Source: Candidatus Woesearchaeota archaeon
Lineage (GTDB): Archaea; Nanobdellota; Nanobdellia; SCGC-AAA011-G17; JACPIM01
Assembly: GCA_018302125.1 (NCBI GenBank)
Contig: JAGWAC010000001.1
Location: forward strand, 33,684-97,683
Direction: 5' to 3'
DNA: 64,000 nucleotides
A program made the position numbers and the translations under genes. Every line of letters begins with the position of its first letter. The stretch's first letter is position 1. Of this stretch, positions 4,986 through 46,197 are shown piece after piece. The notes beneath the pieces were generated by a model. That model made no database searches, was not told the DNA's origin, and saw only the letters and a program-made list of their open reading frames with translations.

Positions 4986-5059
4986 GGGCTCGTAGCTTAG
5001 CCTGGGAGAGCACTACGCTGAAGCCGTAGGTATCGGCGGTTCAAATCCGCCCGAGCCCA
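4986..5059 (+). tRNA. tRNA-Phe (anticodon GAA)
   Basis: Cloverleaf folds: acceptor GGGCTCG/CGAGCCC, anticodon stem CTACG/CGTAG with loop CTGAAGC, T-arm GGCGGTTCAAATCCGCC. Discriminator A; no encoded CCA. A T-run (gttttttt) follows. Confidence 0.85.
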
Positions 5060-35630: not shown

Positions 35631-36623
35631 ATGAAATCAACTAAAGATATTAAAGTCTCAAGTAAAATATATGAGCAGATCATAGGGCAGAATAAAGCCC
35701 TAGAAATAGTTAAAAAAGCAGCAAAACAAAGAAGGAATTTATTATTAATAGGAGACCCAGGAACAGGAAAATCTCTTTTAGGTCATGCATTAGCAGAATT
35801 ACTGCCAACAGAAAAACTTGTTGATGTTCTTTCTTATGATAACCCAATAGATGAAAATACACCAATAATAAAAACAGTTCCTCGGGGAGAAGGTAAAGAA
35901 ATAGTCTCAAAAGCAAGACTTCAAGCAATAACATCTTTTAAGAAACAAAGTACTTTTATATTTATTTTAGTAATTTTATCAATGATCACACCATGGTTAA
36001 TTAGAAAACAATATGGTGACATAATGGCAGCAGCTTCTTTAATAGGTTCAATGATTTTTTTAGGTGCATTTATTTTATTCTTAAATATTAATAGAAGAGT
36101 TAAAACCACATCAAGAGTTCCCAAATTATTAATTGATAATTCAAATACAAAAAAAGTTCCTTTTTTAGACGCTTCAGGAGCACATGCTGGAGCACTACTT
36201 GGTGACTGTTTACACGATCCATTACAATGCCTAAATAGTAGTAACAATATTTTTATAATTAAAGAAATAGGAAAAGATAAATATATCTTACAAGAAGAAG
36301 ATATTAGTTTAAAAATTAATAATTTATTAGAAAAAAATAAAGACAAAATAATTAAAAGAAAAGATTATTCTGCAGTTCATTTAAAAGAAGGGGAATTAAA
36401 AATTTTAGGAGAAAGAAATAAGAACATTCAAGACGTTACTGTATTATCAGTAAATAAACATAAAAATCACCACAAATATTTAATAAAATTAACAACAGAA
36501 ACTGGAAAAGAATTAATTGTTACGTCAGAACATAAAATAGCAGTTAAAGATTTTTTCAATAAAATAAAATATATTGCTGCAGAAAATTTAAAGCCATGGC
36601 ATAAATTAATCACTCTCGAATAA
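35631..36623 (+). CDS. LonB protease N-terminal fragment (AAA+ N-half with membrane insertion) fused to the intein N-fragment (IntN, 36228-36620)
   Basis: Walker A GDPGTGKS, two TM helices, then ...AHAGALLGDCLHDPLQ matching the LonB sensor region. Next comes CLNSS... (intein block A) and LIVTSEHKIAV (block B), then a stop. IntN is 131 aa. Confidence 0.8.
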   Translation: MKSTKDIKVSSKIYEQIIGQNKALEIVKKAAKQRRNLLLIGDPGTGKSLLGHALAELLPTEKLVDVLSYDNPIDENTPIIKTVPRGEGKEIVSKARLQAITSFKKQSTFIFILVILSMITPWLIRKQYGDIMAAASLIGSMIFLGAFILFLNINRRVKTTSRVPKLLIDNSNTKKVPFLDASGAHAGALLGDCLHDPLQCLNSSNNIFIIKEIGKDKYILQEEDISLKINNLLEKNKDKIIKRKDYSAVHLKEGELKILGERNKNIQDVTVLSVNKHKNHHKYLIKLTTETGKELIVTSEHKIAVKDFFNKIKYIAAENLKPWHKLITLE

Positions 36624-36708
36624 TTATTTAGTTGTCTTCCGAAAACTTTCCGAAATTTATTAATTTTTCCAGAAACTTTACAGTTGATTTATAAATCAAT
36701 CCAGAAAT

Positions 36709-36792
36709 CTTCCGAAAATATAGTACTGGACACCAGACGCCCGCCTAGCGCTTATATACTAAATTAGCTTATATACTAAATTATCTTATATC
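36709..36792 (+). repeat. promoter-like repeat element, copy B (1x iteron; TATA-like box tandemly duplicated)
   Basis: CTTCCGAAAATATAGTACTGGACACCAGACGCCCGCCTAGCGCTTATATACTAAATTAGCTTATATACTAAATT. Upstream there are partial CTTCCGAAAA copies at 36637-36660. Confidence 0.5.
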
Positions 36793-36812
36793 TTTTTATG
36801 ACAGAAAAATAG

Positions 36813-37289
36813 GCTAGCATAATAATTTCAGAACAAAATATAATAAATACTTATAATAAATGGCAACAAGAGCAAAGCAAATTATATTTAGAATATAAAA
36901 AAATAAAACAAGAAAATCCAGAGCTTGGTCATAAAAGAATTGCTACACTTCTAAACCAACCACATCATAAAACAAGATAGTGGCATGAAAAAAATAGAAT
37001 AATTAATTTTTTTGAAGTAGCTGCACTTAAATGCTCTTGTTGTGGAAAACTAGGTCAACATATAGATAAATCAAAAAATATTCAAATTATAAGAAGTCCA
37101 GAATTTTTTAATATTTCATCAATAGAAGAATGGGAAAAGTTTATTGATGAAGAACTTAAATTTTTAATTCAAAACAAAGAAGAAGTACTTCTTATACTTC
37201 CAGAACTTGAAAATAAATGGAAAGAGTCTTGTAAAGCATTAAGAAAGCTAATTAAACAAACAACAAATACTCAACACCAACATTTATAA
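36813..37289 (+). pseudogene. degenerate ORF between the two lon halves, in-frame with the lon N-part, with internal TAG (36978-36980) and no start codon; HTH- and HNH-like hints
   Basis: Frame reads ...WQQEQSKLYLEYKKIKQENPELGHKRIATLLNQPHHKTR*WHEKNRIINFFEVAALKCSCCGKLGQHIDKSKN...KALRKLIKQTTNTQHQHL*. Possibly the remnant of a homing-endonuclease-like gene. Confidence 0.3.
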
Positions 37290-37366
37290 ATTTTCTTTTC
37301 TTTTAATACATTAACCAAGTAACTTATTCCTAAATCAGGAGTTGATAAGAACCTTGGTTCTTATTT

Positions 37367-38731
37367 ATGAATCTAAAAACAGAAAAAATAGAAAAAATAG
37401 AAAAAATCCCATATAATGGATATTTATATAATTTGGCAACTACTACGGGTAATTTATTTGCAAATGGAATTCTAGTTAAAAATTCAGGAGGCCTAGGAAC
37501 TCCTGCATATGAAAGACTAGTTCCTGGAATGATACATAAAGCAAACAAAGGAGTTTTATTCGTTGATGAAATCGCAAATTTAAAGCAAGAGTCTCAACAA
37601 GAATTATTAACAGCAATTCAGGAAAAAAAATATCCTATAACAGGGCAGTCAGAAAGATCTAGTGGAGCAATGGTAAGATCAGACCCTGTTCCAACAGACT
37701 TTACCTTAGTAGCAGCAGGTAATGTAGAAACTATAAAACATATTCATCCAGCATTAAGATCTAGAATACGTGGTTACGGTTATGAAGTTTATATGAATAA
37801 TGAAATGGAAGATACAAGCGAAAATAGGCAGAAAATTATTCAGTTCATCGCACAAGAAGTTAGAAAAGATGGCAAAATTCCACATTTTAGAGAAGATGCA
37901 ATTAATGAGATAATAGAAGAAGCAAGAAAAAGAACAGGCAAGCATGGTCAATTAACATTAAGGCTGCGTGATTTAGGGGGTTTAATCAGAGCAGCAGGAG
38001 ATCTAGCATTAGAAGAAAAAACAGACTTAGTAACTCTAAAACAAGTTATCAAAGCAAAAGAATTAGCAAAAACACTAGAGCACCAACTAGCAGATAAATA
38101 TATAGAAAATAAAAGAAAGTATGAAATTATAATTACAAAAGGTACTCAAATAGGAAGAGTTAATGGTTTAGCAGTAATGGGTTCTGATTCTTCTTATTCA
38201 GGTATTGTTTTACCAATAGAATCAGAAATAACCCCTGGCGGAAAAAAAGCAGAAATTATAGCAACAGGTAAATTAGGAAAAATAGCTAAAGAAGCAGTAA
38301 AAAATGTCTCAGCAATTATTCTAAAATATTTTGGTGAGGATATAAAAGAAAAATATGATATTTTTGTACAATTTATACAAACATACGAAGGCTTAGAAGG
38401 AGATTCAGCATCTATAGCAGTTGCAACTGCAATAATATCCGCATTAAAAAAAGTACCAGTAAGGCAAGACACAGCAATGACAGGCTCATTATCAGTCAGA
38501 GGAGAAGTTCTCGCAGTAGGCGGCGTCTCATCAAAAATAGAAGCAGCAATTAGTGCAGGAATAAAAAGAGTAATTATTCCAAAAACAAATGAAAAAGATG
38601 TGATATTATCAAAAGACAAAATAAACCAAATACAAATAATCCCAGTCTCAAAAATAGAAGAAGTTCTAGAGCAAGCCCTAGACTGGAAAAATAAAGAAGA
38701 AATATTAATGAAAATAAAAAGATTTAAATAA
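37367..38731 (+). CDS. intein C-fragment (IntC, 37367-37483) fused to LonB C-terminal fragment (rest of AAA+ domain plus Lon protease domain)
   Basis: [39 protein letters not shown] (intein blocks F and G) is followed by S and [29 protein letters not shown] (LonB Walker B region). C-terminal protease domain with Ser-Lys dyad context ([24 protein letters not shown]). Confidence 0.8.
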
Positions 38732-39312: not shown

Positions 39313-39810
39313 ATGTCTTTCATAAGATTAAAAAAGAGAGTTACAAAATCAAAAGAAAATTTTTATGCTTATATAGTTTCTAATAAATGGCATAACAACC
39401 TTCCAAAACAAAAAATCTCTTTATACTTGGGAAGATATCATAAATTAGATTCTAAAATCATAAAGATAAAGTTGTCTAAACAAGAAAATATTTTAGTTTA
39501 TTTATTAAAAAAAGAGCTTTTGCTACACAATTTTAAGCAAAAAAACCACAGTTTTATTCACCCAAAAGGATTTGTAATTGATTTAAAGAAAAATAAAGTT
39601 CTAAATAAACAAACACAAAACCCAGTTTGTTTAGGCTTAAATCAAGGCTTTCTCTGTTCTTATACATTAAAAAACTTATTAAAATTTAAGCCTAAATTAA
39701 ATAACAAAAAACAAGCAGCTAAGTCCTTAATAAGAATTTTATTGGAAGCAGGAATAAAGCCAGATAAAGACCTATTCTTAGAAACATTCACTAAATTAAA
39801 AATACTCTAA
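39313..39810 (+). CDS. hypothetical basic (Lys-rich) protein (165 aa)
   Basis: ORF only. Confidence 0.35.
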   Translation: MSFIRLKKRVTKSKENFYAYIVSNKWHNNLPKQKISLYLGRYHKLDSKIIKIKLSKQENILVYLLKKELLLHNFKQKNHSFIHPKGFVIDLKKNKVLNKQTQNPVCLGLNQGFLCSYTLKNLLKFKPKLNNKKQAAKSLIRILLEAGIKPDKDLFLETFTKLKIL

Positions 39811-39902
39811 ACAGGCATGCACATCTTATGCACATTCTAAACACATAAACATACCCAATTAATCTACATAATCAATATAAATTTTCTAGCAATCTATCTT
39901 TT

Positions 39903-40562
39903 ATGGAGCCAGATGAAAAAGAGAAAATAAAACAATCTTTCTTAAAAGTCAAAGAAGACATAGAAATCTTAAAAACCCAATTAAATGAGGTTAAAAGCCT
40001 TATTAAGACTCTTGAAAAAAACCTAATTTCTGAAAAACAACTTGATCAAAAACCCCTCACAACCAAAGAAGTTCCACAGGAAATCAGTTCCACAGGAAAT
40101 CAAGGGGTCTATACAAACATTCATTCATTCATTCATGCACATATGCATTCATTCAACAAACATTCAACAGATATTCAACAAACAAACACTCAAATAAATA
40201 CCCACTTAAACAAAAATAAGACTATAGACTGGTCAAAATCTAACCTAACTGATATTGACTCTTATTTTCTAATCCTCACAAAAGGTGAATTTTTATGTTT
40301 TTTAACCATTTATCAGCTTGAAGAAGATTTAAAGAGAGGCGTTTCTTATCTCGAACTCTCACGGCATCTATCTTTATCAGAAGGATGTATTCGTACCTAT
40401 GTCTCTCAAATGCTAAAAAAAGGCTCTCCCTTACAAAAAATACGCCTAAATAATAAACTCACACTTCTTTCCTTAGACAAAAATTTTAGGTTTCTAAACC
40501 TTAAATCTCGTTTAGTTAATATTTTTTCAAGATCTGATCCTAATCAAACCACACTTTCATAA
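39903..40562 (+). CDS. coiled-coil protein with C-terminal winged-HTH-like domain
   Basis: N-terminal heptad-rich region. C-terminus EFLCFLTIYQLEEDLKRGVSYLELSRHLSLSEGCIRTYVSQMLKKG resembles MarR/TrmB-type wHTH. Paralog of 40772-41392. Confidence 0.4.
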   Translation: MEPDEKEKIKQSFLKVKEDIEILKTQLNEVKSLIKTLEKNLISEKQLDQKPLTTKEVPQEISSTGNQGVYTNIHSFIHAHMHSFNKHSTDIQQTNTQINTHLNKNKTIDWSKSNLTDIDSYFLILTKGEFLCFLTIYQLEEDLKRGVSYLELSRHLSLSEGCIRTYVSQMLKKGSPLQKIRLNNKLTLLSLDKNFRFLNLKSRLVNIFSRSDPNQTTLS

Positions 40563-40665
40563 TTTTTTATTTTCAAACTCTTTCTTTTTATATCTCTTTT
40601 TTCAATTTTTTTCATTAATTCTTCTTACAAAATATTAAGATAATTACTAAGAGATAATAAAATGA

Positions 40666-40724
40666 GACGTCACTGACGTCAGTGACGCGTCACTGACGCC
40701 ATAGGAACTTCCAGTGACGCGTCA
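40666..40724. repeat. GC-rich palindromic repeat cluster (GTCACTGAC / GTCAGTGAC units; TGACGCGTCA)
   Basis: ACGTCACTGACGTCAGTGACGCGTCACTGACGCC contains the 22-nt perfect palindrome CGTCAGTGACGCGTCACTGACG. A second element CAGTGACGCGTCA lies at 40712-40724. The flanks are AT-rich. Confidence 0.6.
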
Positions 40725-40771
40725 TAAGCAACAGAAATTTATTTAAACAAAGTAATTTTATTAAAATAAAG

Positions 40772-41392
40772 ATGTGGTGGTTATTTTCAAATAAAAAGAG
40801 GGATACAAGTAGTTCTCATGATATTCATTTATTTAGTAGAATAAAAACTATGGAGGAGAATCTAAAAAATTCTTTCTTCAATATTAAAAAAGATATTCAT
40901 AAAGTAAATAATATAGTTTTTTCCCATGATGATAAGATAAATCATCTAAAAGAAAGAGTCCATTACTTAGAAAACATAATTAAAAATTTAAGGGTATTAG
41001 ACTCTGTCGAAGAATCACCCAAAGAAAAATCCAAAAAAGAAAATATTGAACAGACTATCAATACTGATATTTCTATAAACAATCCAACTATTAAATGGGG
41101 GGATTTAACAAATATTCAACAAAATCTCTTTATGAGATTGGGGTTATTACAGATAGAGGCTAATCAAAGAAGAATAGCTATGAAGCATTTAGCTGAGGAA
41201 TTATATCCTGAAAAAACCTATAATGACGTAAGATCTATGATTTCAGATTATGTTAATTTATTAAATGAGCATGGTTTAGTCAAAAAAACTAGAAAAGGTC
41301 GCCAAATATTTGTTTCTACAACAGAAAAAGGCCTTATTTTCTATGATAAAGCCAAAAAAAAGAAGCTTTTGGATATATTAAGAAAGCATTAA
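40772..41392 (+). CDS. coiled-coil protein with C-terminal winged-HTH-like domain (paralog)
   Basis: Same architecture as 39903-40562 (IAMKHLAEELY...DYVNLLNEHGLVKKTRKGRQIFVSTTEKG). Starts about 50 nt after the palindromic cluster. Confidence 0.4.
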   Translation: MWWLFSNKKRDTSSSHDIHLFSRIKTMEENLKNSFFNIKKDIHKVNNIVFSHDDKINHLKERVHYLENIIKNLRVLDSVEESPKEKSKKENIEQTINTDISINNPTIKWGDLTNIQQNLFMRLGLLQIEANQRRIAMKHLAEELYPEKTYNDVRSMISDYVNLLNEHGLVKKTRKGRQIFVSTTEKGLIFYDKAKKKKLLDILRKH

Positions 41393-46096: not shown

Positions 46097-46197
46097 CGGG
46101 CCCGGAGGGATTTGAACCCTCGGCCCTCTGGTAACTCCAAGAGCTTAAGAGCTTCATCCTTTTGACAGATGCTCTAACCAAGCTGAGCTACGAGCCC
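46097..46197 (-). tRNA. intron-containing tRNA (101 nt), anticodon unresolved; intron apparently non-canonical
   Basis: Clear acceptor (GGGCTCG/CGGGCCC), D-arm (GCTC-AGCTTGGTTA-GAGC) and T-arm (GAGGGTTCAAATCCCTC), with discriminator G. About 28 extra nt sit between positions 31 and 39. No canonical 37/38 intron placement gives a U33 loop. Confidence 0.6.

Follow-up and report, generated by a model that had tools for sequence, protein, structure and literature searches.

The closest described counterparts of the element considered here are the autoregulatory operators of dimeric winged helix-turn-helix (wHTH) regulators, such as those of the MarR, ArsR/SmtB and PadR types, Halobacterium RosR and Sulfolobus ST1710, in which dyads of 5-bp half-sites are located at the regulator's own promoter. 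Furthermore, archaeal activators usually bind upstream of the TFB-recognition element and TATA box (BRE/TATA); for Ptr2, SurR and TrmBL1, upstream sites lead to activation and downstream sites to repression. Phased repeats preceding the gene of a small DNA-binding protein (wHTH or ribbon-helix-helix) that regulates its own synthesis are also known from the ParR-parC, TubR-tubC, AspA (of pNOB8) and SegB systems. In this work we analysed a stretch of 64,000 nucleotides from a Candidatus Woesearchaeota archaeon (contig JAGWAC010000001.1; hereafter, the window), in which a GC-rich island of nested palindromes (window positions 40663–40724) lies between two genes coding for predicted wHTH proteins, i.e., gene 1 (39903–40562, plus strand, 219 aa) and gene 2 (40772–41392, plus strand, 206 aa). 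The comparison of related loci suggests that the island is likely a cis-regulatory protein-binding array, functioning on double-stranded DNA as the autoregulatory operator of gene 2.

The locus shares with the operators of the MarR, ArsR/SmtB and PadR regulators the dyad symmetry, the length of the half-sites and the position at the promoter of the presumed binder; the likeness to RosR, ArsR/SmtB and HlyU extends to the predicted fold of the C-terminal wHTH domain of the gene 2 product and to the co-variation of its site with the recognition helix, and that to ST1710 consists of a weak match. Unlike those regulators, the gene 2 protein does not reach any Pfam or NCBIfam gathering threshold, and it is predicted to dimerise not by its wHTH core but by a long N-terminal helix, connected to the core through about 30 disordered linker residues; moreover, five to six overlapping or abutting dyads spread over about 60 bp are found here in place of one or two, and the array is located entirely upstream of the BRE/TATA. 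In this last respect it would resemble the archaeal upstream activating sequences (UAS) that follow the Ptr2, SurR and TrmBL1 rule, being immediately upstream of a BRE/TATA-like element, but the typical UAS is paired and has far fewer sites. Differently from the partition systems, no gene for a partner NTPase or adaptor is present, and the locus is chromosomal with a conserved gene order. Lastly, the 8-mer TGACGTCA at 40674–40681 is identical to the eukaryotic cAMP response element (CRE) bound by basic leucine zipper proteins; however, the binder is predicted here to be a winged helix rather than a basic zipper and the unit is CGTCA-S-TGACG (S being C or G) or TGACGCGTCA, and the resemblance is coincidental.

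Read from left to right, the array is TGAGACGTCA C TGACGTCA G TGACGCGTCA C TGACGCCA TA GGAACTTCC AG TGACGCGTCA. It is composed of CGTCA/TGACG half-sites, which form three 11-bp CGTCA-S-TGACG palindromes followed by the GGAACTTCC palindrome and by a last TGACGCGTCA. The perfect copies of the 11-mer begin at 40668, 40677 and 40688, with centre-to-centre distances of 9 and 11 bp, and the dyad-symmetric units comprise these three copies plus the TGACGCGTCA and TGACGTCA dyads. A 22-nt palindrome and a second one were indicated in a preliminary description of this DNA; the former (CGTCAGTGACGCGTCACTGACG, 40677–40698) was retrieved and is perfect in the window, as is a palindrome of 20 nt (40668–40687), and a 20-nt direct repeat is present in two copies.

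That the island goes beyond what chance would produce is borne out by its composition and uniqueness. The GC content of the window is 28% (24–34% per kb), and its CpG dinucleotides are 432 against 1290 expected (observed/expected 0.33), ten of which fall in the island, as do 8 of the 18 TGACG/CGTCA pentamers. Shuffling the sequence 100 times with its dinucleotides preserved gave perfect palindromes (GC of 50% or more) whose greatest length was 11.5 nt on average and never above 16 nt. The search for CGTCASTGACG with up to two mismatches retrieved only the three island copies from the 64 kb; in about 46 kb of related loci of class A (those carrying this motif; see below), it occurs only at this promoter, except for one 8-mer within the coding sequence (CDS) of locus L010. 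A dispersed repeat or a miniature inverted-repeat transposable element was therefore discarded, the array being in single copy in the window and, apart from that 8-mer, at a single position in the class-A loci. Half-sites that contain CpG, a dinucleotide depleted in this genome, would render the operator almost unique, in agreement with a dedicated autoregulator. In the recognition helix of gene 2, the codons for N-D-V-R (AAT GAC GTn AGA; 41219–41233 in the window, 3459 in L010) spell TGACGT(C/A)A, matching the half-site sequence of the operator; this is probably a coincidence.

The array is conserved well beyond the surrounding DNA. Seven near-identical contigs show a single polymorphism in the 299 nt of intergenic DNA, a T/C alternation at 40679, inside the island; the C, found in four of the seven, breaks the 22-nt palindrome and renders the 20-nt direct repeat more exact. 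Thus, the 22-nt palindrome does exist, but it is strain-specific and incidental, and what matters are the units and their conservation. Thirteen distinct, diverged versions of the locus were found in Woesearchaeota, and they align without gaps when anchored on the terminal dyad. Compared with the window, the 48-nt core of the island is 90–98% identical in the 12 other loci, against 45–91% for the gene 2 protein, 63–89% for its CDS and 51–83% for the flanking intergenic DNA. Most loci have three full 11-mers, four (L016, L018, L021 and L022) have two, and L010 and L023 have three plus an extra partial unit (GGCGTCACC). The substitutions in the class-A core are limited to the centre bases of the palindromes and to a few T/C positions; moreover, the centres flip only between C and G and never to A or T, with at least three independent events at 40693 and at least two at 40708. 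A core so much more conserved than protein, CDS and flanks points to extreme purifying selection, and flips restricted to C/G in a genome with 28% GC would fit a base pair that can take either orientation on duplex DNA.

Homologous loci also showed that the sequence of the array changes together with the predicted recognition helix of the gene 2 protein. Among 22 distinct loci, three recognition-helix classes pair with three types of half-site: in class A (13 loci, with protein identity dropping to 42–47% and scrambled flanks), the helix VRSMISDY is found with CGTCA-S-TGACG; in class B (L020, L058 and L060), IKSMISNY is found with GTTCA-C-TGAAC, at a unit spacing of 12 bp; and in class C (L019, L062, L063, L064, L065 and L066), [IV]RPMIS[NT]Y is found with CGTAA-C-TTACG. 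Within each class the site is constant despite a deep divergence of the protein (those of class C are 38–66% identical to the L019 protein), and the arrays of classes B and C occupy the same place as that of class A, directly upstream of the BRE/TATA. This concerted change of site and predicted helix residues is what would be expected of a regulator and its own operator.

Gene 2 starts 47 nt past the island and gene 1 ends 103 nt before it, in agreement with the distances of 50 and 100 nt previously reported. The N-terminus MWWLF is kept across 24 homologues, which indicates that the start of gene 2 is genuine. A putative BRE/TATA-like core promoter, AGAAA plus TTTATTTAAA (40733–40747, plus strand), follows the end of the array after a gap of 8 nt, its TATA-like box lying 34–25 nt before the ATG. 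In the homologous loci with a clear gene start, a comparable (C)GAAA plus TTTATWTAAA or TATATAAA box is found about 21–36 nt before the ATG, and the order array, BRE/TATA, ATG is maintained; within class A, between about 5 and about 40 nt separate the array from the TATA box, depending on the locus. The presence of such a box between the island and the ATG places the island in the upstream promoter DNA of gene 2, and the position of the box suggests that the gene 2 mRNA may be leaderless or provided with a very short leader.

According to the AlphaFold model, the gene 2 protein consists of a long N-terminal helix (residues 15–79, i.e., 65 residues), the disordered linker and a C-terminal wHTH domain (114–188) with a predicted local distance difference test score (pLDDT) of about 90. 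The nearest folds retrieved by Foldseek for the latter were those of dimeric wHTH DNA-binding proteins, namely RosR, ArsR/SmtB, HlyU, AspA and TubR, with weak E-values (6e-3 to 4e-2); at the sequence level, weak matches were obtained with the MarR protein ST1710 and, in NCBIfam, with the Sso10a chromatin protein (E 0.015). No Pfam or NCBIfam family was above threshold for the product of either gene 1 or gene 2. The latter belongs to an uncharacterised family with about 300 representatives at 50% clustering, for which the protein-family search did not retrieve any relative from viral contigs. From the model, the protein is a plausible dimeric DNA binder.

Taken together with the anatomy of the array, this allows us to depict how the operator might work. 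The gene 2 product would dimerise through its long N-terminal helix, and the two winged-helix domains of the dimer would read the CGTCA and TGACG half-sites, 5 bp each, of every dyad, in a binding register that could be either CGTCA-S-TGACG (CGTCACTGACG) or TGACG-CGTCA (TGACGCGTCA). Several dimers might load cooperatively, side by side, on three full plus two or three partial dyads, this stoichiometry being presumptive; a spacing of 9–11 bp, close to one helical turn, would bring them on roughly one face of the DNA. The resulting complex of about 60 bp would govern whether TBP and TFB reach the adjacent promoter, and in this way the gene 2 protein would set its own level. The regulatory sign could go either way, that is, activation, given a site upstream of the BRE/TATA, or repression by spreading over the promoter. 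The 11-mers being individually palindromic favours a symmetric dimer on DNA, since the arms of an RNA stem need not be internally palindromic.

Gene 1 has the same architecture as gene 2, and is not the likely binder of the island. The two had been presented as paralogous; they do share the domain layout and, by hhalign, an N-terminal motif K.SF..[IV]K.DI (38 columns, probability 78%), but BLASTP gives an E-value of 0.28, so that paralogy is plausible and the sequence support for it weak. Upstream of gene 1, the region 39806–39855 harbors direct repeats of its own (TCTAAACA, two copies of ATGCACAT, TCTAAACACAT and AAACAT), conserved and with a lineage-specific motif, followed by a TATA-like box AATATAAAT (39863–39871). 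In L016 and L021 the HTH of gene 1 has diverged strongly and the island has not changed, and in L019, L062 and L063 minus-strand open reading frames (ORFs) are inserted between gene 1 and gene 2, with the array still immediately before gene 2. Most simply, the gene 2 product would bind the island and the gene 1 product its own repeats. Hence, the proposal of an operator for the two flanking wHTH regulators finds comparative support for the downstream gene 2 and not for the upstream gene 1, which has a different array.

The motif of the gene 1 upstream repeats recurs within the gene 1 CDS (nucleotides ~210–290; 40110–40200 in the window), where the copies are tandem DNA repeats encoding a low-complexity linker after S(T/I)GNxGV. 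The comparison of upstream region and CDS took in the window, L009, L016, L019, L021, L058 and L060: an exact match of 18 nt (CAAGCAAGCATGCAAGCA) was found in L016 and one of 17 nt (AATCAATCACTAATCAA) in L021, and in the loci with clear sharing the shared 7-mers amount to 35–69 per kb in the gene 1 CDS versus 5–24 per kb in the remainder of the locus. In the window, only CATGCACAT and AAACA[CT] are in common.

As for the single parts of the array, at its left edge the imperfect dyad TGAGACGTCA (40663–40672) differs in its left part from genome to genome (TGAGA, CGAGA, TAAGA, CCAGA) and retains the right half-site CGTCA, which is the start of unit 1. Unit 1 (CGTCA-C-TGACG, 11 bp, 40668–40678) is present in the nine closer class-A versions and missing from the four most distant ones, i.e., those with two units. 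Unit 2 (CGTCA-G-TGACG, 40677–40687) shares a CG with unit 1 and holds the T/C polymorphism, and unit 3 (CGTCA-C-TGACG, 40688–40698) abuts unit 2, their junction forming the first TGACGCGTCA (40683–40692). The spacer CCATAGGAACTTCCAG (40699–40714) contains a CG(Y)CA resembling a half-site and, at 40704–40712, the 9-bp palindrome GGAA-S-TTCC. The latter retains GGA and TCC throughout class A and varies at the three positions between them, with C and G alternating at the centre; L010 and L021 carry variants, GGAGCTTCC and GGAAGCTCC, respectively, that are the reverse complements of each other. As a dispersed site, GGAASTTCC is not enriched in the window (11 matches versus 7.7 expected). The terminal dyad TGACGCGTCA (40715–40724) is the most conserved piece, without any change among the 14 class-A sequences. 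An AT box ATAATTACT (40640–40648), located about 20 nt before the array, is shared by most class-A loci, is ACAATTATT-like in L016, L018 and L022, and is absent from L010, L023 and L021; it may be a second TATA box or the site of another factor.

Some of these data weigh against the autoregulatory operator. The support for it is entirely comparative, and the co-variation embraces three specificity classes. The range of distances between array and TATA box implies that a strict steric occlusion of the BRE/TATA would not hold in all lineages, and the 12-bp spacing of class B means that the location on one helix face is not general. The C/G flips of the centres could be mutational, due to small inversions within the palindromes, and not selected. 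Both GGAA-S-TTCC and the upstream AT box, although conserved, fall outside the half-site scheme; lastly, the uniqueness of the motif was scanned within the 64-kb window, and a wider regulon may exist. A further point is that a plus-strand hairpin (40694–40724) tolerates all the observed substitutions through G-U pairs and loop positions, which leads to the possibility that the island represents a structured RNA, be it part of an mRNA (the 5' leader of gene 2 or the 3' end of that of gene 1) or a small non-coding RNA, whose hairpin would act in attenuation, termination, stability or protein binding. The island does fold much better than its shuffled versions on both strands (plus, -32.1 kcal/mol, z -5.0; minus, -32.4 kcal/mol, z -4.4), in the plus-strand hairpin obtained with RNAalifold (alignment columns 32–62) the variable T/C positions face a G and the others lie in the loop or in a bulge, and the AT box could be a TATA box from which transcription starts at the island. 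However, arrays of palindromic units fold well by construction, and their number varies here (two, three or four). In the 14-bp stem of minimum free energy, ten pairs are invariant and none is compensatory; of the 14 sequences, 6 cannot form pair 31:52 and 3 cannot form pair 25:58, whereas the alternative RNAalifold hairpin exhibits only G-U/G-C alternation, with no double changes. No Rfam family matched at the gathering score, and the hits at E <= 10 were noise far below it. In L021, a mere 8 nt lie between the stop codon of gene 1 and the beginning of the island, too few for a promoter of its own; minus-strand genes precede the array in class C, where it is thus not the 3' untranslated region of gene 1; and a location upstream of the putative TATA box would argue against transcription of the island. 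Several T-runs occur between the gene 1 stop codon and the island, but none directly after the stem on the plus strand; a hairpin followed by a T-run exists on the minus strand only, with no minus-strand gene reading into it, and a bacterial-type terminator was rejected, a kind of hairpin that, to our knowledge, is not the mechanism used by archaea. Two other RNA candidates were also dismissed, a C/D-box small RNA, since inspection by eye revealed no RUGAUGA box and the CUGA motifs are 4 nt apart, and a tRNA or split tRNA, since ARAGORN and Rfam place tRNAs only at 4986–5059 and 46097–46197. A function as RNA would leave unexplained the palindromic arms, the varying number of units, the site upstream of the TATA box and the tracking of the recognition helix; the very stable attenuator or terminator hairpin once envisaged for the island is, on these grounds, not favoured, and a structured RNA of any sort appears unlikely.

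Other hypotheses keep the function at the level of DNA and assign it to a different process or protein. The island might be a centromere-like or chromatin-nucleation site, on which the coiled-coil wHTH protein assembles a higher-order complex for segregation or organisation, autoregulation being a by-product, as in the case of AspA, TubR, ParR and SegB. Closely packed dyads upstream of the binder's own gene are indeed found in parC/ParR and AspA; the nearest wHTH folds include AspA (5k5q, 4rs8) and TubR (6aht, 4asn), the weak Sso10a match is to a chromatin protein, and the core locus is conserved and near a Xer-like gene in classes A and B. The fold matches are nevertheless those of a generic wHTH at the weak E-values given above, Pfam revealed neither an NTPase gene of the ParA, TubZ or SegA type nor a gene for a ParB adaptor in the neighbourhood or in any related locus, and nothing demands more than autoregulation, which makes such a site improbable. 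A broader version, in which gene 1, gene 2 and the two lineage-specific arrays would constitute a conserved Woesearchaeota nucleoprotein locus on the chromosome (centromere-like, chromatin-nucleating or a cell-cycle switch) with the coiled-coil wHTH proteins polymerising on DNA, is doubtful; the recurrence of the gene 1 motif in its own ORF is consistent with a DNA-level function reaching into the coding sequence and, if true, this would be a DPANN-specific system without a characterised counterpart. The operator might otherwise be bound by a different factor, either the gene 1 product, cross-regulating gene 2, or an unlinked regulator. In favour of this, gene 1 neighbours gene 2 in most loci and shares its architecture, and GGAA-S-TTCC and the AT box hint at a second factor; on the other hand, the class of the array tracks the recognition helix of gene 2 and not that of gene 1, whose HTH diverges without any change in the island, gene 1 has its own co-varying repeats, and the array remains with gene 2 where gene 1 is displaced. 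We thus regard another binder as very unlikely. Even less credit can be given to a recombination or replication site, such as a Xer/dif site, the att or dimer-resolution site of an integrated element, plasmid iterons or an origin recognition box: a Phage_integrase (Xer-like) gene lies 2.2 kb downstream, the island holds two copies of a 20-nt direct repeat and the gene content between gene 2 and the Xer-like gene is variable, but in class C loci, which have a patatin gene as neighbour and no recombinase gene in the vicinity, the array is still upstream of gene 2, changing its sequence in step with the recognition helix. Moreover, neither a Rep nor an Orc1/Cdc6 gene emerged from the Pfam scans of the nine neighbouring ORFs and the Pfam matches in the related loci, there is no second att-like copy of the array in the window, and the gene 2 family is absent from viral contigs. 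The dif site consists of two 11-bp arms with a centre of 6–8 bp, a general description from which the architecture of the array would appear to differ. The idea of a dimer or partition site of an integrated element is therefore not sustained, given the conserved gene order, the persistence of the array with gene 2 away from any recombinase, and the lack of viral relatives and of Rep or ParA genes.

Regarding the neighbourhood, diverged genomes keep the 145-aa gene, gene 1 and gene 2 in this order; the near-identical contigs have a Lon gene upstream, and a Xer-like gene is found in the vicinity in classes A and B. The gene 1/gene 2 region is a conserved chromosomal locus. The XerA-like recombinase, C39-like peptidase and DUF559 nuclease indicated earlier among the neighbours correspond to the Pfam families Phage_integrase, Peptidase_C39 and DUF559. 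The segment 41425–42854, from gene 2 to the Xer-like gene, embeds genes for a C39-like peptidase, for an HTH_38 protein and for a DUF559/Vsr-like nuclease; in some of the near-identical contigs, a single 292-aa ORF encodes both the HTH_38 protein and the nuclease. L023 harbors Fic and MazE-like genes instead (this variable segment was compared in the window, L001–L006 and L023). The Lon protease gene (35631–38731) appears interrupted, with ORFs 35631–36623 and 37367–38731 in different frames and junction ends that look intein-like (e.g., ...ANGILVKNS before Lon resumes), as read from the ORF translations only. The 101-nt tRNA found by Rfam at 46097–46197 (minus strand) and missed by ARAGORN is probably an intron-containing archaeal tRNA.

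A viral origin of the motif was also considered and rejected: probing with a 16-mer of the island, TGACGCGTCASTGACG, retrieved 33 viral-contig matches, all of them in phage-like contigs with 41–72% GC, and none in a Woesearchaeota context. Many of these matches belong to an unrelated array, CACGCGTG..TGACGCGTCAGTGACGCGTG, located beside long (GGAAGG)n or (CCTTCC)n tracts in phage-like contigs of about 51–64% GC (L026–L029, L035–L038, L041, L042, L045, L047, L050, L052 and L054), some of which contain the 22-nt palindrome CGTCASTGACGCGTCASTGACG.

The literature search with the motif strings yielded CRE probes and polymerase chain reaction primers only, and that for Woesearchaeota regulators returned nothing relevant, with no regulator-operator pair from DPANN archaea turning up. 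The element is most likely an operator through which a wHTH factor from an uncharacterised family regulates itself; as such it is a clean instance of something already known and does not represent a new kind of mechanism. Its value lies in the fact that the locus offers a ready-made candidate pair of regulator and operator from DPANN archaea, of which three variants with different specificity occur in nature; the unusually clean series CGTCA/VRSMISDY, GTTCA/IKSMISNY and CGTAA/[IV]RPMIS[NT]Y could yield a recognition code for this type of wHTH, and a strongly conserved non-coding array in such fast-evolving genomes provides an anchor for the annotation of Woesearchaeota promoters (BRE/TATA).

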